Below are positions 3,230 to 21,409 of a DNA stretch of 64,000 nt, piece by piece (the first letter of the stretch is position 1; each line of letters opens with the position of its first letter). The DNA is taken from assembly GCA_012840345.1 (NCBI GenBank), contig DULO01000114.1, positions 2,192 to 66,191 on the forward strand. Reading direction: 5' to 3'. The translations under genes were made by a program, and so were the position numbers. The notes under the pieces are model-generated. The model saw only the letters and a list, made by a program, of their open reading frames with translations. It was not told where the DNA came from and did no database searches. The stretch is from Candidatus Fermentithermobacillaceae bacterium (GTDB lineage: Bacteria; Bacillota; Sulfobacillia; Fermentithermobacillales; Fermentithermobacillaceae).

Positions 3230-4108
3230 ATGGGAGCGCGCGCTAAGACAACCGGAGTGCCTTTCACCAAACTCCAAGGCCTAGGGAATGACTATCTGTA
3301 CATAGACCGTTTCTCCTATACGACCGAGCACGATTGGAACGCTTTGGCCAGGCAGATGGCGGAGAGGCATTTCGGGGCGGGTTCGGATGGGCTCATCCTC
3401 GTTGAACCCTCAGACAAAGCCGATTTCCGCATGCGGATGTTCAACTCCAATGGAGCCGAAGGCGACATGTGCGGCAACGGTCTCAGGTGTTTCGCGAGAT
3501 ACGTCTACGACAAGGGACTCACCCGCAAGACCGAGTTTGAGGTGGAGACCCGCGCGGGCATAATGCGCCCTCGCGTGAACCTCAAAGACGGCGTAATCGA
3601 GTCTATATCGGCCGATATGGGTGTGCCTCTTTTCAAGAGGTCCGAAGTGCCTCTGGCCGAGTTGGAAGGGCCTGAGCCGGTGCTGGATTTGCGGGTTGAA
3701 TCCGGTGGCCAGGTGTTCACCGGAACGGCGCTGTTCCTTGGTAACCCGCACTTTGTCATTTTCGTGGATGATGTGGCGGCCGTGGAGTTGGAGAAAGTGG
3801 GACCCGGCTTGGAGTCGCACCCCATCTTTCCCAGAAAGGCAAACATCGAGTTCATCACCGTAAAGAGCCCAACCGAGCTTGACATGCGTGTTTGGGAGCG
3901 CGGCTCGGGCATCACCTTGGCTTGCGGCACGGGAGCGTGCGCTTCTGTAGTCGCGGCGATCCTACACGGGAAGGCGGCCCGGGGAACCGAGGTTACCGTC
4001 AACCTGCCGGGCGGTCCTTTGCGGGTTGAGTGGCGCCTTGACGGCCGCGTTTGGCAGACCGGTCCCGCCGTCGAGGTATATAGCGGGGTATTCCTCCTTC
4101 AGGAGTGA
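3230..4108 (+). CDS. dapF: diaminopimelate epimerase
   Basis: GLGNDYLYID; first catalytic Cys block MFNSNGAEGDMCGNGLRCFA; second catalytic Cys block ERGSGITLACGTGACAS. Confidence 0.9.
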   Translation: MGARAKTTGVPFTKLQGLGNDYLYIDRFSYTTEHDWNALARQMAERHFGAGSDGLILVEPSDKADFRMRMFNSNGAEGDMCGNGLRCFARYVYDKGLTRKTEFEVETRAGIMRPRVNLKDGVIESISADMGVPLFKRSEVPLAELEGPEPVLDLRVESGGQVFTGTALFLGNPHFVIFVDDVAAVELEKVGPGLESHPIFPRKANIEFITVKSPTELDMRVWERGSGITLACGTGACASVVAAILHGKAARGTEVTVNLPGGPLRVEWRLDGRVWQTGPAVEVYSGVFLLQE

Positions 4109-4150: not shown

Positions 4151-4178
4151 AGGAGGGGGCCGTTGGTGGCCCCCTCCT
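4151..4178. terminator. bidirectional terminator hairpin between convergent genes
   Basis: AGGAGGGGGCC-gttggt-GGCCCCCTCCT, a perfect 11-bp stem, between dapF (+) and the PLP enzyme gene (-). Confidence 0.6.
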
Positions 4179-4243: not shown

Positions 4244-5707
4244 CTACGAGAGGAATCCCGCGTGTTTTCCGATTATCTCCATAAGAGCCACGAGGCCCTT
4301 CACAGCCAACCGCATCTTCTCGGGGATGAGGTTGCCGTCGTCGTCGCAGGTGCCCTGGCCCGGCGAGATGAAGATGTTGCCGTCGTAGGCGATGGTCGCG
4401 ATGAGCCCCATCTGGGCGAGACCGACCTGCAGCAGGTGAGAACCGGCATACATGTCTTCGATACTGAAGATCGGGAAGCCCATGCCCTCTTTCCACGTGT
4501 CTTCGTAGTTGACCTCGACGGTCATGCTGTTGTAGGACTTGGAGATCTTGAGACCCTTCTGGAGCTTGGGATGGGCCGCCTTGAACTCCGAAGTCACGAT
4601 CTCGTACAGCTCGTCGACTTGCGAGGTGTAGAAGCCAGGATTGTCCCTGAGGTCCTTCAGCACCTGGACCTGGGTCAGGAGAGCTTCCTTGCCCGGGTCT
4701 AGCATGACGTAAGCGGCTTTGCCGTAGGACGCGGTGGTGCCGTACCTGTCTCCGTGCATGCCCAGCGCCCTGCGGATGTTGACCATCACGTCTTCCTCGC
4801 CGATGATGAGGCCGGAAGTCGCGGCTCCGGTCGCTTTGTCCATGCTGTAGACCACTACAGTGGCGCCGGTCTTGGTCGGGTTATGCCCTAGCAAGGGGAG
4901 ACCCCAAGCGTTGTCGACGACGTACGGGACGTTGAGCTTTCTCGCGAGCGCGCCGATGCCCTTTTGGAGTAGCGGGGTGCCTTCCTCGTCCTTGGCTCCG
5001 TAGCCGTATCCGGGCGTGTCGTATCCGAGGGAGGCGAAGCCTGCGAGTTCGGTTCCGACTCTGTCCGCCATCTCGGCCAGAGCATCCACCGATCCCTTGG
5101 GATCGACCTTGGTGAGCAAAGGTACGGGCCAGTACTTTATACCGTGGTTGGGGTATTCGGCACCGGCGAGAGGCACGACCACGACGTCCAGATTGTCAAG
5201 TCGTTTGCCGGAGAAACCAAACTCGCCCGCGGTTGAACCTCTTTCCGAAATGAACTCCTTGTACTTGGGCGGGTAGGGCCTGCCGTAGCCGCCCTGGTGG
5301 TGCATATGTTTCTCCAGCGGGACTATGTACCTGCTCCGGTACTTGTCGCCGCGTCCGGTGAAAGGAGGCGAGAACAGCGTGTCATAAGTGACCCACAGCG
5401 CGCCTTCGCAGGTGTTTACCGGGCACACATCGTAACCGTCGCCGTAGACATCCTTAACGATTTCCCTAATCTCATCAACCAACCGGGCTAGAGGGATGAC
5501 CTTGGTTGCTCCCTTTTCAGAGGCCTCCAGAACGTTCCTGCGCATGGGGGCCGGGCACCCCGAAATGGCTCCCGTAAGTCCAAGGTTGCCTTTTAGGTCG
5601 CCCGTGATGCCCAGGCTTTCGGCCGCTTCCTTGGCTTCGGCGTAGATCTTGGGGGTGACGGCCTGAAGGTGTTTGTACATCTGGAATTTGTACTTGAACT
5701 CCGGCAC
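4244..5707 (-). CDS. fold-type-I PLP-dependent enzyme, SelA-like
   Basis: Lysine block VVYSMDKATGAATSGLIIGEED has the same pattern as the SelA/DgaE PLP-lysine block (S.DK..GG...G.I.G). 487 aa. Substrate unknown. Confidence 0.55.
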   Translation of the reverse strand: MPEFKYKFQMYKHLQAVTPKIYAEAKEAAESLGITGDLKGNLGLTGAISGCPAPMRRNVLEASEKGATKVIPLARLVDEIREIVKDVYGDGYDVCPVNTCEGALWVTYDTLFSPPFTGRGDKYRSRYIVPLEKHMHHQGGYGRPYPPKYKEFISERGSTAGEFGFSGKRLDNLDVVVVPLAGAEYPNHGIKYWPVPLLTKVDPKGSVDALAEMADRVGTELAGFASLGYDTPGYGYGAKDEEGTPLLQKGIGALARKLNVPYVVDNAWGLPLLGHNPTKTGATVVVYSMDKATGAATSGLIIGEEDVMVNIRRALGMHGDRYGTTASYGKAAYVMLDPGKEALLTQVQVLKDLRDNPGFYTSQVDELYEIVTSEFKAAHPKLQKGLKISKSYNSMTVEVNYEDTWKEGMGFPIFSIEDMYAGSHLLQVGLAQMGLIATIAYDGNIFISPGQGTCDDDGNLIPEKMRLAVKGLVALMEIIGKHAGFLS

Positions 5708-5744
5708 TGTTTGAAACCTCCTTATTTAGTCCTTCCTGATGGCC

Positions 5745-6179
5745 CTAGTCGACCATGCGGAACAAGACTTCCATACCTACCTGGAGCCCTCTCTCTTCTC
5801 CGGACACCAGGCTTCCTCCGACCACAACGTTCATGTGGTTTGGAGCGTGACTGAGATCGAAACCCGCGAGATGGCCTACTACCTGACCGCCAATGACGAC
5901 CTGGTCGCCTCGTACCAGGACTCCGCCGTTATGGAACTCAACGAACGCCACGTACGCAACCCGGCCCACATTGGAACCGGGCGCCGCTTCCTCATCGGTG
6001 GCAATTAGCTCATGGATATCGCCTCTTAGCACAACCCGGGACGGTTGCGGGATCAAACCAAGGTTTCTATCCTGGAGGGTACCACGAAGTACGGCAACGA
6101 CGGTGCCGTGGAGATCGTTTTTTGAGGCGTAAGCGTTGACGGCAAACTTTTTTCGAACATAGGGATCTTCTGTTGTCAC
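5745..6179 (-). CDS. small protein, possibly a PTS-IIA(gut)-like beta-barrel
   Basis: 144 aa, co-directional with and 37 nt upstream of the PLP enzyme gene. GDQVVIGGQVVGHLAGFDLSHAPNHMNVVV loosely recalls the glucitol IIA fold signature. The family call is tentative. Confidence 0.3.
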   Translation of the reverse strand: MTTEDPYVRKKFAVNAYASKNDLHGTVVAVLRGTLQDRNLGLIPQPSRVVLRGDIHELIATDEEAAPGSNVGRVAYVAFVEFHNGGVLVRGDQVVIGGQVVGHLAGFDLSHAPNHMNVVVGGSLVSGEERGLQVGMEVLFRMVD

Positions 6180-6198
6180 CGATGGCCCCCCTCATCAT

Positions 6199-6309
6199 GG
6201 ATGAGCAGGATCAATATATCACACATCTCGTACGAAACTCAACAAGAGTGGATCCTGTGTGATTTGGATGATATTATTTATTAGACCTGTTCAGCAATGA
6301 TGAGCAGAT
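6199..6309. promoter_or_regulatory. divergent control region with repeated motifs (candidate operator sites)
   Basis: Direct repeat GATGAGCAG at 6200-6208 and 6299-6307. Inverted repeat ATCACACA (6218-6225) / TGTGTGAT (6256-6263). AT-rich stretch at 6265-6285. Confidence 0.35.
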
Positions 6310-6336
6310 ACTCGATCGGTGAGGTGAACGGTCACG

Positions 6337-7080
6337 ATGTACGTGTCGGAGCACGACGACCTGTTTGAAGCTCTTGCAGCGGTCGCGGAATCCAAAACGC
6401 CGTTGGGCGCTTGGAACTTAAGGAAAATATTCAGCGGGAAAGGTATTCATGTTTCTGAAGCAACGTGTGGAAGACTGCTCCGTACGATTGAAGACGCCGG
6501 TTACGTCGAATCCCAAGGACGCCGCGGCCGGGTAATAACCAACAAAGGCTTAAAAGCCTTGGAAGAGTGGCGTCAGAGGCAGGTAAGGTACAAATCACAA
6601 ATGGCGTTTGCCCAGAGCCTCCAGATAAAAGGGGCCTCCGAGCTCAAAGACGTCTTAGTTGCCCGAAAAGCGATAGAATCCGAGACTGCCTATCTGGCTG
6701 CCACTCATGCCACAGATGAGGATATAGAGAGACTTCAAAGCATCATAGAGGAGCATAAGAAAGCATACGCCACGGGCGTTCCCGCCACAGACGAAAACGC
6801 CGCTTTCCACCGCGCGGTCGCTTTCGCCGGGAAAAACAAGGTGTTGGCGGCGGCCGTCGACATCATCTACCGGCACCCTGACGTGCTGAGGGCGCTCGAG
6901 TACATCAGAAACCAAGTTGGCTCGGTACTAGTGGAAGACCATGTGCCTATTTTGGACCGCATTATCGCGAGAGACCCAGAAGGAGCCAAGCGAGAGATGC
7001 TCGCGCACATCGAGAACGTCATCAAAGACGTGGACACTTACTGGAGGGAGTGGATGAGCCCGTCGGGCGAACAAGAATGA
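6337..7080 (+). CDS. GntR/FadR-family transcriptional regulator (wHTH + FCD-like domain)
   Basis: N-terminal winged-helix-like region (SEATCGRLLRTIEDAGYVESQGRRGRVIT). The C-terminal helical domain has the FCD-type block AAFHRAVAFAGKNKVL. Confidence 0.65.
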   Translation: MYVSEHDDLFEALAAVAESKTPLGAWNLRKIFSGKGIHVSEATCGRLLRTIEDAGYVESQGRRGRVITNKGLKALEEWRQRQVRYKSQMAFAQSLQIKGASELKDVLVARKAIESETAYLAATHATDEDIERLQSIIEEHKKAYATGVPATDENAAFHRAVAFAGKNKVLAAAVDIIYRHPDVLRALEYIRNQVGSVLVEDHVPILDRIIARDPEGAKREMLAHIENVIKDVDTYWREWMSPSGEQE

Positions 7081-7313
7081 GCGTGAAAGACAGAATCATT
7101 GACGCTTGCGACATTGAGACCTTCCTGGTCTGCGATGGTGTTGAGGAAGGCAAGAAACTTGGGCTGAGGCTCATGGCCGAACTGGGCTTCTCCGACGCGG
7201 ATGTCGTTTTCTGCGAGGAAGGCGGCTCAGGTGTGCGAATACGCCTTCGGGCTTATGTTCACAGGCCGGCCAGCGTTTATAGATGGCACAGCCGTGGAGG
7301 TGAACCGTCTTGA
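7077..7313 (+). CDS. small hypothetical protein (78 aa), coupled at both ends
   Basis: Its ATG overlaps the regulator stop (ATGA). Its stop overlaps the TTG start of the mutase-like gene (TTGA). No recognisable motif. Confidence 0.4.
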   Translation: MSVKDRIIDACDIETFLVCDGVEEGKKLGLRLMAELGFSDADVVFCEEGGSGVRIRLRAYVHRPASVYRWHSRGGEPS

Positions 7314-9121
7314 CACCCAAGAAAATGCTATTGGTTCCCCTCGATCCGGTACACGACGTCGGATTGAAGTTAATCGCTCGTGCCCTACATAACGCGGGAC
7401 ACGAGACAACCATTTTGCCTCCTGATTTGTCGCTGGAAGAGATTATCTCGAAGGCCAAGGCTACCTCGCCCGATTACATCATGGTGAGCAGGACCATTAG
7501 CTACGGAACCGCGGAGGTCTTGGCCAGGTTCGTGGACCTGTGTGATGCCTCGGGGATCCGAGAACACGCCAAGCTGGTGGTCGGCGGGCTCAGCATGAGG
7601 CCTGAAATGGCCCAGGAATACGGTTTTGACGCCGGCTTTGGGCCGAACACCACCCCGGAAGAAGTGGTAGCGTGGGTGGACGGCAAGAGGATTGAAACCG
7701 CTTCAGCGCGTCATAGCCTAACGAAGCCCGACATAACCCAGGGGTATTCATACGCGTTTCGCGATACCGAAGCGGGCGAGCTCTGTTACGACATTGCCCA
7801 GACGATTCTGGAATGGGCGGGCAACAAGACCACCGCGGGAATCGAGAGGGCTAAGGTGCGTGCCGACCTCGAGGAGGCCAGGGCCCAGGGTGACGAAAGC
7901 TCAGCTAAAGAACTCCTGGCCAAGTACGCTGGCCTTACCTCGGGCGATGTCCGCAAGTGGTACGATCTCGGGATCCCTGTTCCCCACACAAGGGCGCTCA
8001 CGGCGTCTGAGATTTCGCTGATAGAGTCGCTATCATTGGAGTCGCCGCTCCCCCCGGGTCAGAAACCTCTGGAGGGCCGTACGGTTATGGTCCAGTACGG
8101 TACCGGATGCCCCGTGATGGACGCCCAGCATATCGCTCTATCCCTGGCCTGGGGAGCCCGAGGCGTGGTCCATTTTGATCCGTCTTGGGGGGCCCGGACC
8201 GAAGGATTGCTTGAGGGAGCGTGGAGCCACCAGCACGACGGTACCGTTTTGACCCTCGAAAACCTGAAACTGATAAAACGGGCTATTCACCCCGGCGCCT
8301 TGTGGCAAGTTAGGGCGCACAGGGGGTTGAACACACCGGAGACCGTGGTGCTCGCGCACCTTGCCGGTGCCGACCTCACCAAAGTGAACATAGTGTACGG
8401 AAGCTTGGGAGCCGGTTCTGACCCCGCCAGGCTGACGGTGGACGGTGTGGAAGCCATGCGTTTGGCCGCCAGGTACGGAATGCCTTTTGACGTTGTGACC
8501 AACGAAGAACTCTGCGGCGTGCCTGCCAGGAAAGCTTTCGCGGGGATGCTCATAGTGGCGACAGTGGGTCTAATGCTCGGCGGGCGTCCCGTGCTTCAAC
8601 CCCTCTTTGCCAACTCTCCTGAGGCGATGGTGAGGGGACTGTCCGAAGACAACTTCGTGGACTTCAACTACGCTAAGATGGCTGTCTTGCGGGAGATCAT
8701 CGATGCCCCCATTTGGCCCGGCGCTCCTGTCGGCTTCATGACGCAGACGCCGGACCGCTGCCAGTCAGCCACGATGACCGCTCTACACGCGGCCCTGGCT
8801 TTGAACTTGGGAGCGTCCGCCGTGACCATCGCTTCCTCTGACGAGGCTTACGCCGGCGGACCGATTTCCGCCCACGCTAGAGTGGACACCCTGAAATCCA
8901 CGGCGGCGGCGCTTCGTTTCTTCGGTTCCAGCGGCATAGGGGCGACTCCCAGGGGCGACGTTTACGCGTCAGAACTTCGAGAAGGGATCATGGAAACGCT
9001 CCGCCGCGTAAGGGAGCGTCGGGATTTCGTCGCCGCGCTCTATGAAGGGCTCTTGGGCGACAAAGACGATGGAGCTTACCCGGGGCGCGCTGGAAAAGAC
9101 ACGGTAAGAGAGATCAGGTAA
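7310..9121 (+). CDS. cobalamin-binding domain fused to a GlmE-like barrel (glutamate-mutase-like, substrate unknown)
   Basis: N-terminus reads LLVPLDPVHDVGLKLIARALHNAGHE ... IMVSRTISYG ... KLVVGG ... FGPNTTPEEVVAWV. This parallels GlmS/MutS (DCHAVGNKIL ... VSSL ... VGG ... APGTPPEV). The C-terminal ~460 aa carry GlmE-like blocks such as VTIASSDEAYAGGPISAHARVDTLKS. Confidence 0.6.
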   Translation: MTPKKMLLVPLDPVHDVGLKLIARALHNAGHETTILPPDLSLEEIISKAKATSPDYIMVSRTISYGTAEVLARFVDLCDASGIREHAKLVVGGLSMRPEMAQEYGFDAGFGPNTTPEEVVAWVDGKRIETASARHSLTKPDITQGYSYAFRDTEAGELCYDIAQTILEWAGNKTTAGIERAKVRADLEEARAQGDESSAKELLAKYAGLTSGDVRKWYDLGIPVPHTRALTASEISLIESLSLESPLPPGQKPLEGRTVMVQYGTGCPVMDAQHIALSLAWGARGVVHFDPSWGARTEGLLEGAWSHQHDGTVLTLENLKLIKRAIHPGALWQVRAHRGLNTPETVVLAHLAGADLTKVNIVYGSLGAGSDPARLTVDGVEAMRLAARYGMPFDVVTNEELCGVPARKAFAGMLIVATVGLMLGGRPVLQPLFANSPEAMVRGLSEDNFVDFNYAKMAVLREIIDAPIWPGAPVGFMTQTPDRCQSATMTALHAALALNLGASAVTIASSDEAYAGGPISAHARVDTLKSTAAALRFFGSSGIGATPRGDVYASELREGIMETLRRVRERRDFVAALYEGLLGDKDDGAYPGRAGKDTVREIR

Positions 9122-9124
9122 GCA

Positions 9125-10282
9125 GTGGCCAGGACCTTCAACGGACCGATCATAGGTATAGCGGGCACCGCCAAGAACACGGGCAAGACCACCACGTTCA
9201 ACGCGGTGACCCGCTACTTGCGTCGCATAGGCCGGGACCGTTTGCTCACCAGCATTGGTTATGACGGGGAAGACCTGGACAGCATCACAGGCTTGCCCAA
9301 GCCCAAGGTGTTCGTGGAGACGGGCGATGTCGTAGCCACCGCCCTTCCGCTGCTCCGGGCGTCTACCGCCGTCTTTGACGAGCCGGCGCTCACAGGAGTT
9401 GAGTGCGCTTTAGGACCGGTCTGTGTCGCCAAGGTTAGGGATGGCGGCAAGGTTGTGTTGGCCGGTCCCACCAGCACCAAAGACGTTGAGACGGTGCTCG
9501 GGTTCGTAAGCGCCGCTTTGCCCTCACGGGACAGGATTACGCTGCTTGATGGCGCGTTTTCCAGGATGTCTCCCATGGCTTTGTCAACCCACTTGCTGAT
9601 CGCCACAGGGGCCGCCAGGTATCAGTTCCCCGGCTTCATAAGCCAAAACATGGACGAGCTGGCCGCCGTATTCGGCCTTCCCCTGGACGAAGGGGAATGG
9701 GATTTGGTGTTGGACCACGGGCTGTTTGATGATGAAGGCGCGGAGTTGGTCTTTGAGGCTATTGAGAGTGTCTGGAAAGACCAGGCCTTCCAGGGTGCGG
9801 CTCAGGTCACTGCTCTGGCCGCGGCTGACGCTGCCCGCATGGATTCCCCCGGCATCGTTCTCCGCTGCGCGATAAACGGTGTCGTAGCTCCCTCCCCGTT
9901 GACGAGACTGTTGGAGCTGTTGGATAAGTCCCCAAGAAACATCCGTGTTACCTTCGGCTTCGCTCACCCGATTTCTCTGCTTCTCTCCGGTGACTTGAGC
10001 CTATGGCGCGGCACCATTCAAAACGCCGCGAGAGCGGGCCACAATCTCGCGGTCCGTGCGACCTCCCGTCTGTTGGGGTTCACCATAAGCCCGTACTTCC
10101 CGGTGTACGATATGGAGCGCCGCGAGTACGTGGCGTCGTACGCCTCGCCCAGAAGCTTCCTCAACGAAATCCGCAGCAGGACCTCGGTGCCTTGCACCGA
10201 CATCATCCTTGAGGGAACCCGGATCCTTGAGTCTTGGATAGACTCGGTCTCAGTGACGAAAGAGTCCCCGACCGGCGCTTGA
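9125..10282 (+). CDS. P-loop protein, DTBS/CobQ-like (SIMIBI-type) N-terminus
   Basis: IIGIAGTAKNTGKTTT P-loop near the N-terminus, then SIGYDGEDLD and LLDGAFSRMSP. This resembles the dethiobiotin synthetase / cobyrinic-acid-diamide-synthase nucleotide fold. GTG start 3 nt after the mutase stop. Confidence 0.45.
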   Translation: MARTFNGPIIGIAGTAKNTGKTTTFNAVTRYLRRIGRDRLLTSIGYDGEDLDSITGLPKPKVFVETGDVVATALPLLRASTAVFDEPALTGVECALGPVCVAKVRDGGKVVLAGPTSTKDVETVLGFVSAALPSRDRITLLDGAFSRMSPMALSTHLLIATGAARYQFPGFISQNMDELAAVFGLPLDEGEWDLVLDHGLFDDEGAELVFEAIESVWKDQAFQGAAQVTALAAADAARMDSPGIVLRCAINGVVAPSPLTRLLELLDKSPRNIRVTFGFAHPISLLLSGDLSLWRGTIQNAARAGHNLAVRATSRLLGFTISPYFPVYDMERREYVASYASPRSFLNEIRSRTSVPCTDIILEGTRILESWIDSVSVTKESPTGA

Positions 10283-10343
10283 CCCTGACCCGTTCCTACT
10301 GGTAGCATCCGCTTTAATACAAGTACGCGGGAGAGAACCAGCC

Positions 10344-11285
10344 ATGAAGATACTCGCCACAAGGCCGTGGAAAGAATGGGAAAAGCAAGCCATATCAAGA
10401 GCTGTGAAGGACGCCGAGTTCTTGGAGCCGGGGCCGGTCCCCATAGAGGAGCTTATAGAAGAAGCGGACGTACTGTTTGGATCATCCCAGGTACCTCTGG
10501 ACCGGGTCGCCAGTTCCAAGACCTTGAAACTTGTGCAGGCCCGGTCGACCGGAGCCGATAGGTTTCTAACCGAAGAGTTCAAGAAATCCAAAATCATACT
10601 GACGACCGCCAGAGGGGTTCACGCCCCTCCCGTGGCGGAACACGCCGTAGCCCTCATGATGGCCGTGGCCTACAACTTCAGGACCAACGACAAGAACCAG
10701 CGGGAGAAGACATGGGGCGAGCACTCCGTAAACCGGCTTTACGGCAAGACCGCAGGCATTTTGGGCATGGGCACTATCGGCGAAGAGATCGCCAAGCGGT
10801 GCAAAGGCCTGGACATGAACGTTATCGGTACCAGAAAGGACCCCTCGAAAGGTTCGGCCAATGTTGAGAAGGTTTTCCCGCTGGACCGCCTTCCCGAGTT
10901 TCTCGCTTCCTCAGACGTCGTCTTGTGTTCTTTGCCCGGGACGCCGGATACCTACCATTTCCTGGCCGAAAAAGAGTTTAGGGTGATGAAACCTTCCGCT
11001 CTCGTGATAAACGTCGGCCGGGGCTCCGTCATCAATGAAAAGGACCTGATAAAGGCCCTGTCAGAAGGATGGATAGCCGGAGCGGGTCTCGATGTTTTCG
11101 AGGAAGAGCCGCTTCCGCCGGATAGTCCTCTTTGGGATATGCCAAACGTGGTTATTACGCCGCATTCCGCGGGTTACGCTCCTGACAACGAGCGGAAGAT
11201 AATAGAAATCCTGATCCAAAACCTAGTAAACCTGCAAGAAGGGTTGCCGCTTGTGAATGTCGTAGACAAAGAAGCCGGGTATTAG
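10344..11285 (+). CDS. D-isomer-specific 2-hydroxyacid dehydrogenase
   Basis: NAD fold GILGMGTIGEEIAKR. Catalytic blocks INVGRGSVI (Arg), LDVFEEEP (Glu), ITPHSAG (His). Confidence 0.85.
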   Translation: MKILATRPWKEWEKQAISRAVKDAEFLEPGPVPIEELIEEADVLFGSSQVPLDRVASSKTLKLVQARSTGADRFLTEEFKKSKIILTTARGVHAPPVAEHAVALMMAVAYNFRTNDKNQREKTWGEHSVNRLYGKTAGILGMGTIGEEIAKRCKGLDMNVIGTRKDPSKGSANVEKVFPLDRLPEFLASSDVVLCSLPGTPDTYHFLAEKEFRVMKPSALVINVGRGSVINEKDLIKALSEGWIAGAGLDVFEEEPLPPDSPLWDMPNVVITPHSAGYAPDNERKIIEILIQNLVNLQEGLPLVNVVDKEAGY

Positions 11286-11331: not shown

Positions 11332-11577
11332 CGGAGAATCGCCTTTTTCGAAAGGGCGTTCCGCGCGGCGCTGGGCTCAGAGCCTGAGATCGGTTCCACT
11401 GCCGCATGGTTGGACTCGGCGATCTTGAAGGACGCCGGCATCCCCACGGCGGTGTTCGGGCCTTCCGGGGAAGGGGCGCACAGCGCGTACGAAGCTGTCG
11501 ATTTCGCCTCAGTTGTGTCCGCGGCAAAGGTGCTCGCTTGCGCGGCGGCTTTATTTTGCGGGATTGACGGAAAGTGA
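11332..11577 (+). pseudogene. C-terminal remnant of an M20-family deacylase/peptidase (ArgE/DapE-like)
   Basis: Open frame without a start codon reads IAFFERAFRAALGSEPEIGSTAAWLDSAILKDAGIPTAVFGPSGEGAHSAYEAVDFASVVSAAKVLACAAALF. This is the typical last ~80 aa of M20 enzymes. The N-terminal ~300 aa are absent. Confidence 0.5.
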
Positions 11578-14281: not shown

Positions 14282-15322
14282 ATGACAGAAGACCGTTTGG
14301 GTTTTCCCACCGTCAAGCTGACCCATCTCCCGACCCCCCTGGAGGAAGCCCCCAGATTCTCGGAAGCCCTGGGAGGACCCAGAATCTTCATCAAACGAGA
14401 CGACACGACCAGTCTGGCCTTGGGAGGAAACAAGGCGAGGAAACTCGAGTTTCTCTTGGGTGACGCCCTAACTCAAGGCTGCGACGCTGTGGTGACTTGC
14501 GGGGGACCGCAGTCAAACCACGCAAGGATGACCGCGGCCGCCGCGCGAAAGCTGGGCCTTACGCCTGTGCTGGTCTTTGAGGGGGATGACCCCGGGCACA
14601 GGATGGGGAACCTTCTCTTGGACAGCCTGTTGGGCGCCGAGATGATTTTTGCCGGGGACAAGCCTACCGAGTTAGTGATGGGAGAGGTACGTGAGCGGCT
14701 CGTGAAAGAAGGCAAAAAGCCCTACATGGTCCCCATCGGAGGCTCCACCCCGTTAGGTACTTTAGGTTACTACGTATGTGCCGAAGAGATCGTAAGCCAG
14801 TGCCAGGCCATTGGGATTGAGCCCAAGGCGATATACCTGGCGGCGGGTTCTTTGGGCACTTTGTCCGGCCTATTGATAGGCAAGCTCGTACACCAGGCGC
14901 CTTTCGAGGTGTTGGGAGTAGCCGTAGGACGGACCGACGAGAGCAAGATCGAAAGAGGAGTCGAGCTCACGCTGGGTGGAGCGAGCCTTCTTTTGTCCCG
15001 CGCCTCGGACAAGCGTCTAGAGCGCCTGTCTGGGGTTACCGCGGAAGAAGTGCGTCCGCTGGTGAAAGTGCTTACCGGGCAGGTAGGTCCGGGCTACGGG
15101 ATACCGACGCCTGAATGCTTGGAAGCCATTACTCTCCTCGCTAGGACCGAAGGGATCCTCACCGACCCGGTTTACACGGGTAAAGCCCTGGCGGAACTGG
15201 TCGCCGCTGCCCGGCGGGGAGATTACCGCAAGGATGATACTGTAGTTTTCCTTCATACAGGCGGAGTGCCAGCTGACTTCGCTTACGGAGACGTCTTCTT
15301 GACAAAGGAGGAACTCAAATGA
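14282..15322 (+). CDS. D-cysteine desulfhydrase / ACC-deaminase-family PLP enzyme
   Basis: IKRDDTTSLALGGNKARKLEFLLGDAL (PLP-lysine block of this family), GGPQSNH, FLHTGG. Confidence 0.8.
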   Translation: MTEDRLGFPTVKLTHLPTPLEEAPRFSEALGGPRIFIKRDDTTSLALGGNKARKLEFLLGDALTQGCDAVVTCGGPQSNHARMTAAAARKLGLTPVLVFEGDDPGHRMGNLLLDSLLGAEMIFAGDKPTELVMGEVRERLVKEGKKPYMVPIGGSTPLGTLGYYVCAEEIVSQCQAIGIEPKAIYLAAGSLGTLSGLLIGKLVHQAPFEVLGVAVGRTDESKIERGVELTLGGASLLLSRASDKRLERLSGVTAEEVRPLVKVLTGQVGPGYGIPTPECLEAITLLARTEGILTDPVYTGKALAELVAAARRGDYRKDDTVVFLHTGGVPADFAYGDVFLTKEELK

Positions 15323-16029
15323 GGCCCGTCATCGGTATCGTGGCCAGTTATGACGAGGAAAGAGGAGTCGCGGCCTGCACCAGGACCTATATTGACTCCA
15401 TCGTTGAGGCGGGAGGAAAACCTATACTAATCCCGCTCATGCCCGACGAAGCCGCTCAGGAGATGCTGTCGGTGGTAGATGGGCTCCTGTTCCCAGGGGG
15501 TGTGGACGTGGACCCGATGCGCTACGGGGAGCGTCCGCACCAGGCGCTCGGCCGCATAAGCCCCGAACTCGATGCTTTGGAGATCCCTTTGGCCCAGAAG
15601 GCGTTGGCCATGAACATGCCGCTCTTAGGGATCTGCCGGGGCTGCCAGGTGGTCACCGTGGCTTCAGGCGGCACTCTTGTCCAAGACATTCCCAGCCAGG
15701 TTGGGGGCGCCATGAAACACAGCCAGTCGGCGCCCAGATGGTACGGGACCCATGAAGCAGTGTTGGATGAAGACTCCTTGGTCGCGAGACTGCACGGTAC
15801 CAGGCGTCTCGTTGTGAATTCATTCCACCACCAGAGCATAAAGTCCCCCGGAGATGGTTTCACGGTAACGGCCAGGGCCCTTGACGGGATAGCCGAGGCC
15901 GCCGAGGCCAAGAAGGGCTTTAGGTTGCTTATCCAGTGGCACCCCGAGTGCATGTGGGTAAAGAACAGGGTTTTCTTGGCGCCTTTCACCGCTTTGTGCA
16001 AGGCGGCCAAGGGCCAGTCGTGGGAGTAG
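15319..16029 (+). CDS. peptidase C26 / gamma-glutamyl hydrolase-type class-I amidotransferase-like protein (PuuD-like)
   Basis: Nucleophile elbow LLGICRGCQ, NSFHHQ, IQWHPE. ATGA overlap with the upstream gene. Confidence 0.8.
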   Translation: MRPVIGIVASYDEERGVAACTRTYIDSIVEAGGKPILIPLMPDEAAQEMLSVVDGLLFPGGVDVDPMRYGERPHQALGRISPELDALEIPLAQKALAMNMPLLGICRGCQVVTVASGGTLVQDIPSQVGGAMKHSQSAPRWYGTHEAVLDEDSLVARLHGTRRLVVNSFHHQSIKSPGDGFTVTARALDGIAEAAEAKKGFRLLIQWHPECMWVKNRVFLAPFTALCKAAKGQSWE

Positions 16030-16035
16030 ACAAGC

Positions 16036-17154
16036 ATGGACGGCACATCACCCAAGACTGCCAGACCTAGGTGCAGGGACCTTGGCATAACAATTGGAAG
16101 GATGTCTCCCGGGCCGAAAAACGCCATCACCGATGTTCCCCAAGTCGCGGTAGGCCACGTTACCTTGATCGATGGGGAAGGGCCTTTGGTGCCTGGGAAA
16201 GGGCCCGTTCGCACAGGGGTCACCGCTGTTCTTCCACACCGGGGGAACCTTTTCGAGGAGAAGGTCCGGGCAGCGATTCACGTCATAAACGGGTTCGGCA
16301 AAGCCACCGGCTTGGCTCAGGTCGCGGAACTAGGGGTCCTGGAAACGCCCTTGGTCTTGACCAACACCCTATCGGTCGGTACTGCGTGGGATGCTCTATG
16401 CGAGTACATGCTAACCAAGAACCCGGAGATCGGAGTCTCTACAGGCACGGTCAATCCGGTGGTGCTTGAGTGCAACGACGGCTTCCTGAACGACATACGA
16501 GGACGGCATGTACGCCGGGAACATGTGCTGGCGGCGTTGGATGGGGCCACTTGCGGCCCGGTCCAGGAAGGAAACGTTGGCGCGGGCACAGGCATGTCGT
16601 GCTTGGGCTTTAAAGGAGGAATCGGGACAGCGTCCCGGAGGCTCACCGGGGAACTGGAAGGAAACTGCCTGGGAGTCTTGGTTCTGGCCAACTTCGGTCA
16701 AGCCGAGGACCTTACCATCGCGGGAGTCCCTGTGGGGTTCGAGCTATCCAAACGGCAACATCATCCCCCCGCGCCTCCCGGGTCGATAGTGATCATCGTG
16801 GCCACGGACGCTCCGCTAAGCGATCGCCAGTTGGGCAGGGTCGCCCGGAGGTGCCAAGGGGGCCTAGCCAGAGTGGGTTCGGTTTTCCACAACGGGAGCG
16901 GCGATTTTGTGGTCGCCTTTTCAAACGCCGAAAAGGTTGGTCATCAAGGGCCCGCGATCGAGAACGCGAAGATGGTGAGGGACGACTCTTTGGAGATGGC
17001 GGGACTCTTCAGGGCAGCGGTGGAAGGCACGGAGGAAGCGGTCCTGAACGCCCTTTTCGCGGCCGACACCATGGTGGGCAGGGACGGCAACACCAGGTTA
17101 GGGCTTCCCCTTGACGAAACCGTGGAGATCTTGAAAAGCCATAGAGCTTTGTAG
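16036..17154 (+). CDS. DmpA/BapA-type (peptidase S58) aminopeptidase
   Basis: VGHVTLIDG...VRTGVTAVLPH, and the self-processing/nucleophile block PPGSIVIIVATDAPL. Confidence 0.75.
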   Translation: MDGTSPKTARPRCRDLGITIGRMSPGPKNAITDVPQVAVGHVTLIDGEGPLVPGKGPVRTGVTAVLPHRGNLFEEKVRAAIHVINGFGKATGLAQVAELGVLETPLVLTNTLSVGTAWDALCEYMLTKNPEIGVSTGTVNPVVLECNDGFLNDIRGRHVRREHVLAALDGATCGPVQEGNVGAGTGMSCLGFKGGIGTASRRLTGELEGNCLGVLVLANFGQAEDLTIAGVPVGFELSKRQHHPPAPPGSIVIIVATDAPLSDRQLGRVARRCQGGLARVGSVFHNGSGDFVVAFSNAEKVGHQGPAIENAKMVRDDSLEMAGLFRAAVEGTEEAVLNALFAADTMVGRDGNTRLGLPLDETVEILKSHRAL

Positions 17155-18333: not shown

Positions 18334-18422
18334 AGGGATTTTGAGATCCGACAGCATATTGCAGACAAGTAGGTTTATTGCGATTTATCCTTGGCGTTGG
18401 CAGCAAGGGAGGGGGACAGTTA

Positions 18423-20273
18423 GTGCCTGAAGAAAAAGCTTTTCAGCTGGACAGGGAGATCAACTCTGTCTTGGCTACAGACTGCGGCTCCACAACGACC
18501 AAAGCGATCCTCATCGAAAAGGTCGGCGACGAATATCGCCTTATAGTTAGAGGTGAAGCCCCGACAACCGTTGAGGCTCCGTTTGAGGATGTTACCGCAG
18601 GCGCGAGAAACGCTATACGAGAAGTCGAGGAACTGACAGGAAAGACGCTACTGGACGAAAAGGGAGTCATAACCCCGAGAAGGCCCGACGGAACCGGAGT
18701 GGACATCTACATGTCCACGTCCTCGGCCGGCGGCGGCCTGCAGATGATGGTGGCCGGCGTGGTCAAAACCATGACCGCCGAATCGGCGGCAAGAGCCGCT
18801 CTTGGCGCGGGCGCCATCGTCATGGACGTTATCTCGGTGGACGATGGAAGGAAGCCCCACGAGAAGATCCAAAGGATCCGCCACCTGCGTCCCGACATGA
18901 TTCTTTTGTCAGGGGGCATTGACGGCGGCACCATCACTCACGTCGTGGAGATCGCCGAGTTGATCTCGGCGGCGGAACCCAAGCCCAGGCTGGGAATTGG
19001 GTTCAAGCTGCCGGTGATTTACGCGGGCAACAAGGACGCGAGGCCCCACATTCAATCAAGTCTGGGTCAAAAAGTGGACCTCAGGATCACGGACAACCTC
19101 CGTCCGGTTCTGGAGAAAGAAGTCTTGGGACCCGCCCGAGAAGAGATCCACAACCTGTTCATGGAGCACGTTATGGCCCAGGCTCCCGGGTACAACAAAC
19201 TCATGTCCTGGACACCGGTGCCCATCATGCCGACGCCGGGCGCGGTAGGCATTTGCATGCAGACTGCCTCGCGAGAGTATGACGTGAGCGTCATCGGCGT
19301 TGACATCGGCGGCGCCACGACTGACGTCTTCTCCGTGTTCGGCGAGTTCTTTAACCGTACCGTTTCCGCGAACTTGGGAATGAGCTACTCTATCTGCAAC
19401 GTTCTCTTGGAGGCGGGCGTCCAAAACATCTTGCGCTGGATACCGTTTAAGATAGATGAGGGCGACCTCAGGAACAGGATCCGGAACAAGATGATCCGTC
19501 CGACGACCATTCCCCAGACTCTCGATGAGCTCGTAATTGAGCAGGCGATCGCTCGCGAGGCTCTGAGGCTCGCTTTCCTCCACCACAAGAGCTTGGCTGT
19601 GGGATTGCGTGGAGTCCACAAAGAGAGGACTATCGGAGATACTTTCGAGCAGACCGGAAGCGGAGAGTCTTACATCGACCTCATGGATCTCGGCATGCTT
19701 GTCGGTTCGGGCGGCGTTTTGTCCCACGCGCCGAGACGCGCTCAGAGCGCCATGATGATGCTGGACGCTTTCCAGCCTGAGGGGCTCACAATGCTTGCGG
19801 TAGACTCGATCTTCATGACGCCCCAGCTGGGCATCTTGTCCACGATCCATCCGAAAGCCGCCATGCAAGTGTTTGAAAGGGACTGCTTGATTATTCTGGG
19901 CACCGCCATAGCTCCGGCCGGCCCGAGCGGTTCCGCCAAGCCGGGAGACTCCTGCGTGAAGGTGACTTTGGAGTGGGACGACCAGTCTGTTACCGAAGAA
20001 GTGCCTTACGGCCAGATGAAGGTTGTCCCGGTTCCCAACGGCAAGACCGCAAAGGCCGTCATCCAGCCGTCCAGGCAATTCAACGCGGGCGCCGGATACG
20101 GCCATACCGTTGAAAAGACGATCAACGGCGGAGTAGTGGGCGTCATCATTGACTGCCGCGGACGGCCGTTCACGCCTCCTGCCGACGAAGCTTCGCGCAA
20201 CGCCAAACTCTTGGAGTGGTTCAGGGCTTTGAATCTGTACCCCCAAGAATCGCTGGAAAAGTACGCTAAGTAG
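18423..20273 (+). CDS. GlmL/MutL-like ASKHA-fold protein (hydantoinase/reactivase-related)
   Basis: Phosphate-1 motif LATDCGSTTTKAILIE and second ASKHA motif VIGVDIGGATTDVFSV. Start placed at GTG 18423, 6 nt after AAGGGAGGGGGA; the ORF opens at 18378. Confidence 0.65.
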   Translation: MPEEKAFQLDREINSVLATDCGSTTTKAILIEKVGDEYRLIVRGEAPTTVEAPFEDVTAGARNAIREVEELTGKTLLDEKGVITPRRPDGTGVDIYMSTSSAGGGLQMMVAGVVKTMTAESAARAALGAGAIVMDVISVDDGRKPHEKIQRIRHLRPDMILLSGGIDGGTITHVVEIAELISAAEPKPRLGIGFKLPVIYAGNKDARPHIQSSLGQKVDLRITDNLRPVLEKEVLGPAREEIHNLFMEHVMAQAPGYNKLMSWTPVPIMPTPGAVGICMQTASREYDVSVIGVDIGGATTDVFSVFGEFFNRTVSANLGMSYSICNVLLEAGVQNILRWIPFKIDEGDLRNRIRNKMIRPTTIPQTLDELVIEQAIAREALRLAFLHHKSLAVGLRGVHKERTIGDTFEQTGSGESYIDLMDLGMLVGSGGVLSHAPRRAQSAMMMLDAFQPEGLTMLAVDSIFMTPQLGILSTIHPKAAMQVFERDCLIILGTAIAPAGPSGSAKPGDSCVKVTLEWDDQSVTEEVPYGQMKVVPVPNGKTAKAVIQPSRQFNAGAGYGHTVEKTINGGVVGVIIDCRGRPFTPPADEASRNAKLLEWFRALNLYPQESLEKYAK

Positions 20274-20287
20274 GAGGGAAGGTAGAA

Positions 20288-21409
20288 ATGGCACACGCAT
20301 ATACGCCTGGATTGAAAGTTACCGAGAGGGCCATCGTCAGGAAGACGCGCCGCCTTCCTATCCTAGGTGAAGTCCTTGTAGAGAAGGGCCAGTCCGTGTC
20401 TCCGGACACAGTGGTAGCCCGCACCAACATACCCGGCAACCCGATGACGGTTAACGTGGCTAATGTCCTGGGCGTGGAACCTGAAGATATATTGGATTTC
20501 ATGACCAAGAAGGAAGGGGACACGATCCGCAAGGATGAGATCCTGGCCAACTACAGGTCGTTCTTCGGCCTGTTCAGGCACGAAGTGAAGTCCCCCGTTG
20601 ACGGGACCGTCGAGATGATCTCCACGGTTACAGGCCAGGTTACTTTGCGCGAACCTCCTATCCCCGTGGAAGTTGACGCTTATATAGACGGCGTGGTCGA
20701 AGAAGTGCTCCCAAGGGAAGGCGTTGTCGTCAGAACTGAAGGTGCCTTCATCCAGGGCATTTTCGGAGTTGGCGGCGAGACTCAGGGTATCGTTAGGGTG
20801 GCCGTCGACGGGCCCGATGACGTTCTTGACGAGTCGTGCTTCACTCCCCAGGACAAAGGCAAAGTGATCGTAGGCGGTTCGCTGGTTACCGCCGCGGGTA
20901 TCAAGAAGGCTGCCGAGGTAGGCGCGAAAGGCGTAGTGGTAGGCGGTATCATCGATACCGACCTGATCGCTTACTTGGGACACGACATCGGAGTCGCCAT
21001 TACCGGTCACGAAGATGTACCCGTCACCTTGATTATCACTGAGGGCTTCGGCAAGATGAGGATGGCTGACCGGACTTTCCAGTTGTTTAAGGCGATTTCC
21101 GGATTTAAGGCGTCCATTAACGGAGCCACCCAGATCAGGGCGGGTGTTATGAGGCCCGAGATTATCGTCCCCGGCTTCCAGGCCACAGAGCAACTGGTCG
21201 AGCACGACCTGTCAGAGGGCTTGGTCCCCGGCACCCCGCTCCGCATCATCCGGGAACCTTACTTCGGACAGTTGGCGGAAGTTGTCGACCTGCCGCCTGA
21301 GCTTCAGGTAATCGAGACAGAGGCCAAAGTGAGAATACTTCGGGCCAAGCTCCAGGACGGTACCATCGTGACCATTCCGAGGGCCAACGTAGAGATCATC
21401 GAGAAGTAA
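20288..21409 (+). CDS. hypothetical protein with lipoyl/biotinyl-like barrel-sandwich hybrid segments
   Basis: GQSVSPDTVVARTNIPG and GDTIRKDEILANY...VKSPVDGTVEMIS resemble hybrid-barrel motifs. No attachment lysine motif (MKM) is seen. 14 nt after the GlmL-like gene, with a GGAGGGAAGG RBS. Confidence 0.45.
   Translation: MAHAYTPGLKVTERAIVRKTRRLPILGEVLVEKGQSVSPDTVVARTNIPGNPMTVNVANVLGVEPEDILDFMTKKEGDTIRKDEILANYRSFFGLFRHEVKSPVDGTVEMISTVTGQVTLREPPIPVEVDAYIDGVVEEVLPREGVVVRTEGAFIQGIFGVGGETQGIVRVAVDGPDDVLDESCFTPQDKGKVIVGGSLVTAAGIKKAAEVGAKGVVVGGIIDTDLIAYLGHDIGVAITGHEDVPVTLIITEGFGKMRMADRTFQLFKAISGFKASINGATQIRAGVMRPEIIVPGFQATEQLVEHDLSEGLVPGTPLRIIREPYFGQLAEVVDLPPELQVIETEAKVRILRAKLQDGTIVTIPRANVEIIEK

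Follow-up and report, generated by a model that had tools for sequence, protein, structure and literature searches.

A conserved but undescribed gene cluster of Bacillota that pairs a putative adenosylcobalamin isomerase of lysine 5,6-aminomutase ancestry with a divergent pyridoxal phosphate enzyme

Which reaction is served by a cobalamin (B12) protein and a pyridoxal phosphate (PLP) enzyme that are encoded in two divergent units around one regulator gene is the question raised by positions 4,244 to 11,285 of a 64,000-nt stretch of contig DULO01000114.1 from a Candidatus Fermentithermobacillaceae bacterium (assembly GCA_012840345.1), the whole stretch being referred to below as the window. The left unit encodes a 487-amino-acid (aa) PLP enzyme, here PLP487, and the all-beta protein DUF6917, and the right unit an FCD-domain regulator, a 78-aa protein, a 603-aa B12 protein, a P-loop protein and a D-2-hydroxyacid dehydrogenase (Table 1). 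The cluster, which is widely conserved among anaerobic Firmicutes, probably carries out an undescribed B12 reaction and breakdown pathway. For the more specific proposal, i.e. an FCD-controlled catabolic module in which an adenosylcobalamin (AdoCbl) isomerase, derived from an aminomutase and lacking its PLP site, would act together with PLP487 and DUF6917 to convert a small nitrogen-containing acid into a 2-oxoacid, we see about an even chance.

The predicted architecture of the 603-aa protein comprises an N-terminal KamE-type His-on B12 Rossmann domain, a helical linker, and a KamD-like TIM barrel. The B12 domain (PF02310, 1.9e-15) had its closest profile matches in KamE, the beta subunit of lysine 5,6-aminomutase, and was aligned by hhalign to KamE of genuine kam loci with a probability of 99% (E-value 3.5e-18). 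Within the cobalt-ligand motif (PLDPVHDVG; window 7337–7357, residues 10–16) the residues L-D-P-V-H-D-V-G were invariant, with Asp at −3 from the ligand His and Pro at the usual −2 position, so that D-P-V-H-D-V-G is one residue longer than DxHxxG. With H15-D-V-G invariant and S60 and G92-G93 kept, the sequence displays the motifs of base-off/His-on B12 binding. The same domain matched corrinoid proteins of methyltransferase systems (1e-7 to 1e-5), and the 603-aa protein might on that ground be a corrinoid methyl carrier or a B12 sensor instead of a radical AdoCbl enzyme; this is highly improbable in view of its barrel of the KamD, OraE, GlmE and methylmalonyl-CoA mutase type and of its KamB-type reactivase partner (see below), and no methyltransferase or RamA-type activase genes were met among the recurrent neighbours.

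The barrel was related to known enzymes by fold comparison and profile-profile comparison only. When the AlphaFold2 model of the 603-aa protein (pLDDT 81.8) was compared with PDB by Foldseek, the best structural match was KamD (1xrs_A, E-value 5.8e-16, TM 0.65), followed by OraE (3kow, E-value 4.6e-10), GlmE (E-value 3.7e-9, TM 0.50) and, more weakly than GlmE, methylmalonyl-CoA mutases. By hhalign, 405 colinear columns were aligned to KamD residues 27–496 (probability 64%, E-value 6.5e-5). A phmmer search with the C-terminal barrel against 1.84 billion representative proteins returned one full-length representative of its own family, together with fragments, and no distant relatives, and a barrel profile had no match among PDB sequences. 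The protein is annotated in the source records as cobalamin B12-binding domain-containing protein, or wrongly as a methylmalonyl-CoA mutase subunit; none of Pfam, NCBIfam (June 2026) and the source annotations describes the family, and literature searches with DUF6917, KamB/KamC, reactivase, and aminomutase plus Tepidanaerobacter gave no description of it. On these profile and fold matches the 603-aa protein is presumed to be the catalytic subunit of an AdoCbl radical isomerase.

The other members of the right unit point to the same ancestry. The 78-aa protein was aligned to KamE residues 40–76 (hhalign probability 69%, E-value 4e-5), is conserved at 38–76% identity with 16 invariant residues, and probably shares its origin with the N-terminal domain of KamE. 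The P-loop protein, which from the sequence had been taken as DTBS/CobQ-like, gave no Pfam or NCBIfam match to those families; its only family match was NF052386 (2.6e-40, 138 bits versus a cut-off of 210), and hhalign against genuine KamB gave a probability of 100% (E-value 5e-62). Its Walker A motif GTAKNTGKTT is invariant, and the protein is presumed to assist the B12 enzyme as its chaperone or reactivase subunit. Sequence and profile searches of PDB with the 78-aa ORF (open reading frame) and the KamB-like protein yielded nothing useful. Because of the hhalign and Foldseek matches, the set is described here as a KamE N-terminus, a KamE Rossmann domain joined to KamD, and KamB, and not as GlmS+GlmE with a DTBS-like protein.

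Lysine 5,6-aminomutase KamD/KamE with KamB/KamC (Clostridium sticklandii, Thermoanaerobacter tengcongensis; PDB 1xrs, 8t0v, 9q1a) is accordingly the closest known system. Common to both are the His-on B12 Rossmann domain and a GFDAGFGP motif, the TIM-barrel motifs TG, GA(T/R)TEG, GLxxPE, YG and AP..P..F.T of KamD, the small module resembling the KamE N-terminus, and the KamB-type P-loop accessory. In the cluster, by contrast, the N-terminal part of KamE forms the separate 78-aa protein, the KamE Rossmann domain is fused ahead of the KamD barrel, and sequence searches with the barrel reach no further than its own family. The partner genes differ as well. Genuine kam loci, fetched as reference, have the order kamA-kamB-kamC-kamD-kamE; KamC, a MutS-type ATPase, was found neither in the window nor in 160 related loci, and KamA, Kdd and Kce had no BLAST match in the window or the related loci (Kal was not among the queries). 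The claim that aminomutase partners are absent thus held for KamC, KamA, Kdd and Kce but failed for the KamB-type partner. PLP487, being of the same length as KamC, was considered as its equivalent, and no similarity was found.

A further candidate for the missing ATPase partner was a GlmL/MutL-family gene at 18378–20273, 8 kb downstream of the cluster, which encodes 631 aa (PF13941, 5e-123, below the NCBIfam GlmL cut-offs) and belongs to a family whose members act as accessory proteins of B12 mutases. It was rejected as a general partner because it lies nearby in the closest relatives only. It is followed at 20288–21409 by a gene for a conserved 373-aa protein of no known function, and the pair is syntenic in the closest relatives only.

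These observations bear on the GlmS+GlmE-like label which the sequence-only reading had given to the 603-aa protein, and on the possibility that this is a fused glutamate mutase feeding the methylaspartate pathway. The likeness is real in several respects, as GlmS, GlmE and GlmL share the His-on mode and the TIM barrel, the GlmE match is structurally significant, weak matches to GlmS models were obtained, the GlmL-family gene is present in the window, and the methylaspartate pathway ends in pyruvate, with PFOR found in the regulon (see below). Glutamate mutase, an AdoCbl mutase that needs no PLP and has a free acid as its substrate, also resembles the proposed cluster enzyme in these respects and in its arginine-rich pocket. 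However, both KamD and OraE surpassed GlmE in the structural comparison, the nearest relative of the B12 domain was KamE, neither Pfam (Met_asp_mut_E) nor the phmmer search found GlmE, the accessory protein is of KamB type, and no methylaspartase, mesaconase or citramalate lyase genes occurred among the recurrent neighbours. The label was consequently dropped, and a glutamate mutase is considered very unlikely. The statement that methylaspartase and glmL are missing was right for the cluster itself, where neither is found, but has to be qualified by the GlmL-family gene downstream.

The aminomutase PLP site was looked for in the alignment. The PLP ligands of lysine 5,6-aminomutase (5,6-LAM) were taken from PMC3958899, and Caloramator KamD, the numbering of which is identical to that of the published residues, was used as reference. 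The Schiff-base residue K144beta, located 11 residues after the cobalt-ligand His, aligned to an invariant L26, and the loop MNMKGYAGHYGLERYEM was deleted. R184 was replaced by an invariant D290, G187-Q188-S189 fell inside a 9-residue deletion, Y236 was deleted, S238 (the pyridine nitrogen serine) was replaced by an invariant R338, and R268 by Ala or Gly. The substrate ligands D298 and K370 were not kept either, K370 aligning to W469. The sole retained PLP ligand was the PLP-stacking Y263, found as Y363. As judged from this alignment, the aminomutase PLP site is not conserved in the 603-aa family, and a radical 1,2-rearrangement without an aminomutase-type PLP site is therefore proposed.

The main competing explanation is a true PLP- and AdoCbl-dependent diamino-acid aminomutase of the ornithine, lysine or 2,4-diaminobutyrate type, in which PLP would be anchored anew, for example via K358, an invariant lysine five residues before Y363 and the only alternative Schiff-base candidate seen. 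In such a pathway the flavoprotein and RidA encoded in many of the related clusters would replace an NAD-dependent diamino-acid dehydrogenase, and DUF6917 with PLP487, which form a small-plus-large PLP pair, would replace a cleavage enzyme of the OrtA/OrtB type. This would be consistent with the descent of the whole system from KamDE/KamB, with the conserved stacking Tyr, with ArgE/DapE- and DoeB-like M20 deacylases, ProC and a class-III aminotransferase encoded nearby, and with RidA, which suits imine hydrolysis. The ornithine system offers a similar logic: D-ornithine 4,5-aminomutase (OraS/OraE) likewise consists of a small subunit and a large B12/TIM-barrel subunit, and in the cluster with Ord and OrtA/OrtB the radical isomerase reaction precedes an oxidation, after which a PLP enzyme of one small and one large chain acts. 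In OraE, on the other hand, the barrel is N-terminal, the B12 domain C-terminal, and PLP is bound by K629. Sequence homology to Ord, OrtA and OrtB was lacking, including in comparison with the NCBIfam models, and the candidates for these roles would be the GidA-like flavoprotein, RidA, DUF6917 and the fold-type-I enzyme. With the Schiff-base lysine, three phosphate ligands, the pyridine serine and both substrate ligands missing or replaced, an aminomutase seems rather unlikely. The system is thus filed neither under the aminomutases nor under glutamate mutase, because the defining PLP features of the former and the GlmE/GlmL features of the latter fail; it would work in the manner of a class-III/class-I AdoCbl isomerase that has its own chaperone.

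In the left unit, PLP487 had no Pfam match, and residues ~250–310 alone matched known families, i.e. O-acetylhomoserine (OAH) sulfhydrylase (2e-6), DgaE (2e-4) and SelA-like proteins, far below the cut-offs; for TIGR01437, 23.7 bits were obtained over residues 254–313 only (cut-off 385), and a PDB profile search matched the same short segment. The residues DNAWG...YSMDKA of this segment are invariant and align with the PLP-lysine region of both OAH sulfhydrylase and DgaE, and the motif YSMDKATG with an invariant K291 shows the S-x-x-K pattern of fold-type-I enzymes. From the description of PLP487 as SelA-like, the fold-type-I lysine segment can be retained, but not a full-length SelA or DgaE match above cut-off. 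The likeness to DgaE/SelA and to the fold-type-I enzymes of Cys/Met metabolism thus concerns the PLP-lysine segment, along with the association with RidA, as known for enamine-releasing lyases; PLP487 differs from DgaE/SelA by matching over ~60 residues only, by ~100 extra residues, and by its obligate neighbour DUF6917.

Homologues of PLP487 were found in 367 species, and the DUF6917 and PLP487 genes are adjacent in nearly all loci. The AlphaFold2 model of DUF6917 (pLDDT 90.9) is all-beta and had no fold match in PDB (Foldseek, best E-value 0.21); a suggested likeness to the PTS EIIA-Gut barrel was for this reason left unsupported. In Desulfovirgula, DUF6917 is fused to RidA (L003:4013–4918; L numbers denote the loci compared). 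The adjacency makes DUF6917 a probable small partner of PLP487.

The gene neighbourhood was conserved to a degree which shows the locus to be a functional unit, the arrangement being far beyond chance. The core set of DUF6917, PLP487, FCD regulator, 78-aa, 603-aa B12 and P-loop proteins was found in >100 Bacillota species, and the B12 gene in 183 of ~185,000 GTDB species, from which 79 loci were fetched. Partner shares were counted within 10 kb in those 48 B12-anchored loci whose flanks measured 7 kb or more in each direction: the small ORF was present in 100%, the FCD regulator in 92%, PLP487 and the KamB-like protein in 85% each, DUF6917 in 69%, RidA in 62%, the GidA-like flavoprotein in 56%, and a 462-aa membrane protein in 23%. 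The flavoprotein had remote MnmG/TrmFO matches only, and no family was matched by the membrane protein, which appears dedicated to these clusters and recurs in them as do ProC-type reductases and M20 deacylases. Within some clusters lies a reductase gene, that of a true ProC in L039 and of a ProC-like enzyme in Tepidanaerobacter.

The composition of the clusters is variable. A minimal operon consists of the FCD regulator, 78-aa, B12 and PLP487 genes, stand-alone modules of DUF6917, PLP487, flavoprotein and transporter genes exist (e.g. a second copy in Heliorestis), and in Fermentithermobacillus the two units are 110 kb apart. Two full or partial cluster copies within ~20 kb were seen in L037 with L044 (Desulfosporosinus sp. 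OT, one contig), L041 and L129, and the B12 paralogues of two-copy genomes are equally distant from the window protein (54–55% identity); in L041, an oxaloacetate-decarboxylase alpha-like gene lies between the two copies. The orthologues of the mutase-like gene were thus clustered and not scattered, and neither canonical glutamate-fermentation genes nor kamA, kdd or kce were seen beside them. The central proposal of the sequence-only reading, an uncharacterised and functionally linked cobalamin and PLP locus, was borne out by this synteny, by the shared candidate operator, and by the lack of an existing annotation.

The regulator had been assigned to the FadR/GntR type, of which the FCD effector domain was recovered (PF07729), but the N-terminal domain was an RNase-R-type winged helix (PF08461) and not the GntR helix-turn-helix (PF00392). 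It resembles the FadR/FCD regulators LldR, PdhR and NanR by the effector domain and by a palindromic operator close to the promoter, and differs from them by the winged helix. The palindrome with the 15-bp consensus CTCATC-N3-GATGAG, conserved ahead of cluster operons in over 100 species, is a candidate operator of this regulator. In loci L001–L162, 141 perfect sites were counted in 2.93 Mb of cluster loci (108/162 loci), versus 0 sites in 1.29 Mb of kam control loci, with ~0.2 expected by chance. Operators of the GntR family typically have a GT-N-AC core, which is not present in this consensus. In the window, the perfect site CTCATCATGGATGAG and the imperfect site TTCAGCAATGATGAG (Table 1) are each located just downstream of a −10-like box, and TTCACCAYTGATGAG is found in relatives at the position of the imperfect one.

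The operator occurs directly upstream of the DUF6917/RidA-PLP487 operon, the operon of the 78-aa and B12 genes, the regulator gene and the transporter gene, also in the split genomes, where it is common to both units even at a distance of 110 kb. In single loci it precedes a 1207-aa PFOR gene (L037), OFOR subunit genes (L121, L124), ABC binding protein genes (L038, L124) and a TerC gene (L039). The PFOR and OFOR genes in the regulon elsewhere point to a 2-oxoacid as end product. Membrane proteins of the Na+/Ca2+-exchanger and TerC families recur next to the cluster or within it (L004:485–1489, L067:13509–14513, L113:6439–7395; TerC in L003 and L039).

In four separate lineages the cluster or the DUF6917-PLP487 module has genes of the aspartate family next to it, namely dapF and thrC, ask, hom-thrC-thrB-ask, and hom-thrB (window 3230–4108; L003:1776–2996; L126:3770–8376; L145:7151–9372; L011:4461–5573). 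Together with the housekeeping flanks acpS, nnr and scpAB, they would suit a biosynthetic role, i.e. an alternative route to 2-oxobutyrate and isoleucine or to an aspartate-family amino acid. Such a role is judged improbable, as the cluster has a dedicated FCD regulator of a type usually found with catabolic genes, its regulon includes dedicated importers, ABC binding proteins, PFOR and OFOR, its distribution is patchy, and one contig holds the cluster twice.

For the catabolic module, the following order of steps is the one that we infer. An FCD-family repressor would bind CTCATC-N3-GATGAG and control both divergent units. The substrate would probably be an amino acid or diamino acid, derived partly from hydrolysis of N-acyl compounds or peptides, as hinted by the recurrent M20 deacylases, the aspartate-family genes, and the D-amino-acid and peptide genes of the window (see below). 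The right unit would supply the AdoCbl radical isomerase, a rearranged descendant of lysine 5,6-aminomutase composed of the 78-aa and 603-aa proteins with the KamB-type chaperone, and in its pocket with invariant Arg, Asp and His a radical 1,2-rearrangement would bring the nitrogenous acid into a form open to elimination or cleavage with PLP. The left unit, DUF6917 with PLP487 and elsewhere mostly also RidA and the GidA-like flavoprotein, would then deaminate or cleave the product to a pyruvate-type 2-oxoacid and ammonia, and the 2-oxoacid would be reduced by the D-2-hydroxyacid dehydrogenase in the window lineage or oxidised by PFOR or OFOR elsewhere. The initial suggestion, that a dicarboxylic acid with an amino or hydroxy group is rearranged, may still be accommodated, since the loss of the PLP site and the invariant Arg, Asp and His in the pocket leave room for it.

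Several points weigh against this reading. The argument for the loss of the PLP site is a profile alignment with a probability of 64%, in which the N299 and E341 columns of KamD are of low confidence, and the isomerase may yet use PLP, because all four components of the system descend from a PLP-dependent aminomutase system and the stacking Tyr is kept. Homologues of RidA and the flavoprotein were found nowhere in the 64-kb window, and the 2-oxoacid end product is deduced from few lineages.

With respect to layout, the two divergent units of seven genes around the regulator were confirmed ORF by ORF, close homologues exist for each ORF, and the set is syntenic in dozens of species; in metagenome contigs from a biogas fermenter, independent gene calls gave identical products of 247, 78, 603 and 385 aa. 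The tight packing described for the first three junctions of the right unit could be read directly: the regulator stop overlaps the ATG of the 78-aa gene in ATGA at 7077–7080, the 78-aa stop overlaps the TTG start of the 603-aa gene in TTGA at 7310–7313 (with GGAGG at 7297–7301), and the 603-aa gene stop TAA at 9119–9121 is separated by a 3-nt gap from the GTG start of the KamB-type gene at 9125. At the bidirectional terminator proposed on the left side, the G+C-rich hairpin was verified; it has no T-run and was for that reason not flagged by a terminator scan. Transcripts from both directions are likely to end there. With Rfam, neither a riboswitch nor any other RNA was found in the window, and in seven related loci just unrelated T-boxes.

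Table 1. Coordinates of the cluster and its bordering features in the window.
Feature	Position	Strand	Evidence or remark
G+C-rich 11-bp hairpin	4151–4178		between convergent dapF and PLP487 gene; without T-run
PLP487, divergent fold-type-I PLP enzyme, 487 aa	4244–5707	−	local profile matches only
DUF6917 protein, 144 aa, all-beta	5745–6179	−	PF21891, 6e-43
Candidate operator, perfect palindrome CTCATCATGGATGAG	6191–6205		12 nt upstream of DUF6917 start codon
Imperfect second candidate operator site TTCAGCAATGATGAG	6290–6304		~30 nt upstream of regulator ATG
FCD regulator, 247 aa	6337–7080	+	PF07729, 2e-24; PF08461, 1e-7
Small subunit "s", 78 aa from ATG	7077–7313	+	hhalign to KamE N-terminus
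B12-domain/KamD-like barrel fusion, 603 aa	7310–9121	+	PF02310, Foldseek, hhalign
KamB-type P-loop protein, 385 aa	9125–10282	+	NF052386 below cut-off; hhalign to KamB
D-2-hydroxyacid dehydrogenase, 313 aa	10344–11285	+	PF02826, 1e-60
M20 remnant, C-terminal ~80 aa of ArgE/DapE-type deacylase gene	11332–11577	+	

The stable variant of the window lineage runs from dapF through the leftward PLP487 and DUF6917 genes to the rightward genes of the FCD regulator, 78-aa protein, B12 protein, KamB-type protein and dehydrogenase, followed by an M20 gene in part of the genomes, acpS and nnr. The dehydrogenase, which besides PF02826 matched PF00389 (9e-8) and NCBIfam models below cut-off, with no equivalog, occurs in the cluster only in the window and its closest relatives L006, L007, L011 and L095, and in 2% (1/48) of the B12-anchored loci. 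It is a lineage-specific addition to the right operon and not, as had been assumed, a core member. The M20 remnant noted at the right border is real; at the same place an intact gene (383–386 aa) is found in L006 (9258–10409) and L011 (13906–15066), where it overlaps acpS and is coupled in translation to the dehydrogenase gene, and by this comparison the window copy is what a deletion has left of a complete gene for an ArgE/DapE-type deacylase.

Just beyond nnr, a block of three genes at 14282–17154 encodes a PLP enzyme resembling D-cysteine desulfhydrase and CuyA, a C26 peptidase and an S58 peptidase of the DmpA type; the same block occurs in synteny in L007 and L011. Its flavour is one of D-amino acids or peptides, and it might relate to the cluster substrate. 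On the other side, upstream of dapF, a methionine-type ABC transporter (ATPase, permease and NlpA/MetQ lipoprotein, 29–2404) is probably unrelated.

About a dozen AdoCbl isomerase reactions are known, each of which has taught new radical chemistry. Owing to its rearranged architecture, rebuilt pocket, clear KamDE/KamB ancestry and defined regulon, the cluster can be tested directly as a candidate source of a new B12 reaction and fermentation route. At somewhat less than even confidence we propose that the 78-aa and 603-aa proteins would constitute a new class of AdoCbl isomerase without the aminomutase PLP site, catalysing a rearrangement new to B12 enzymes, that the regulon would encode an undescribed anaerobic pathway from a nitrogenous acid to pyruvate or another 2-oxoacid, and that DUF6917 would be a PLP-enzyme subunit of new fold. 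If true, the family would provide an example of a PLP-dependent radical enzyme losing or relocating its second cofactor. The operator offers a handle on the inducer, and thereby on the substrate. The carriers, i.e. Tepidanaerobacter, sulfate reducers of the Desulfotomaculum type, heliobacteria and Fermentithermobacillaceae, matter for biogas digesters and for the turnover of carbon and nitrogen in the subsurface.

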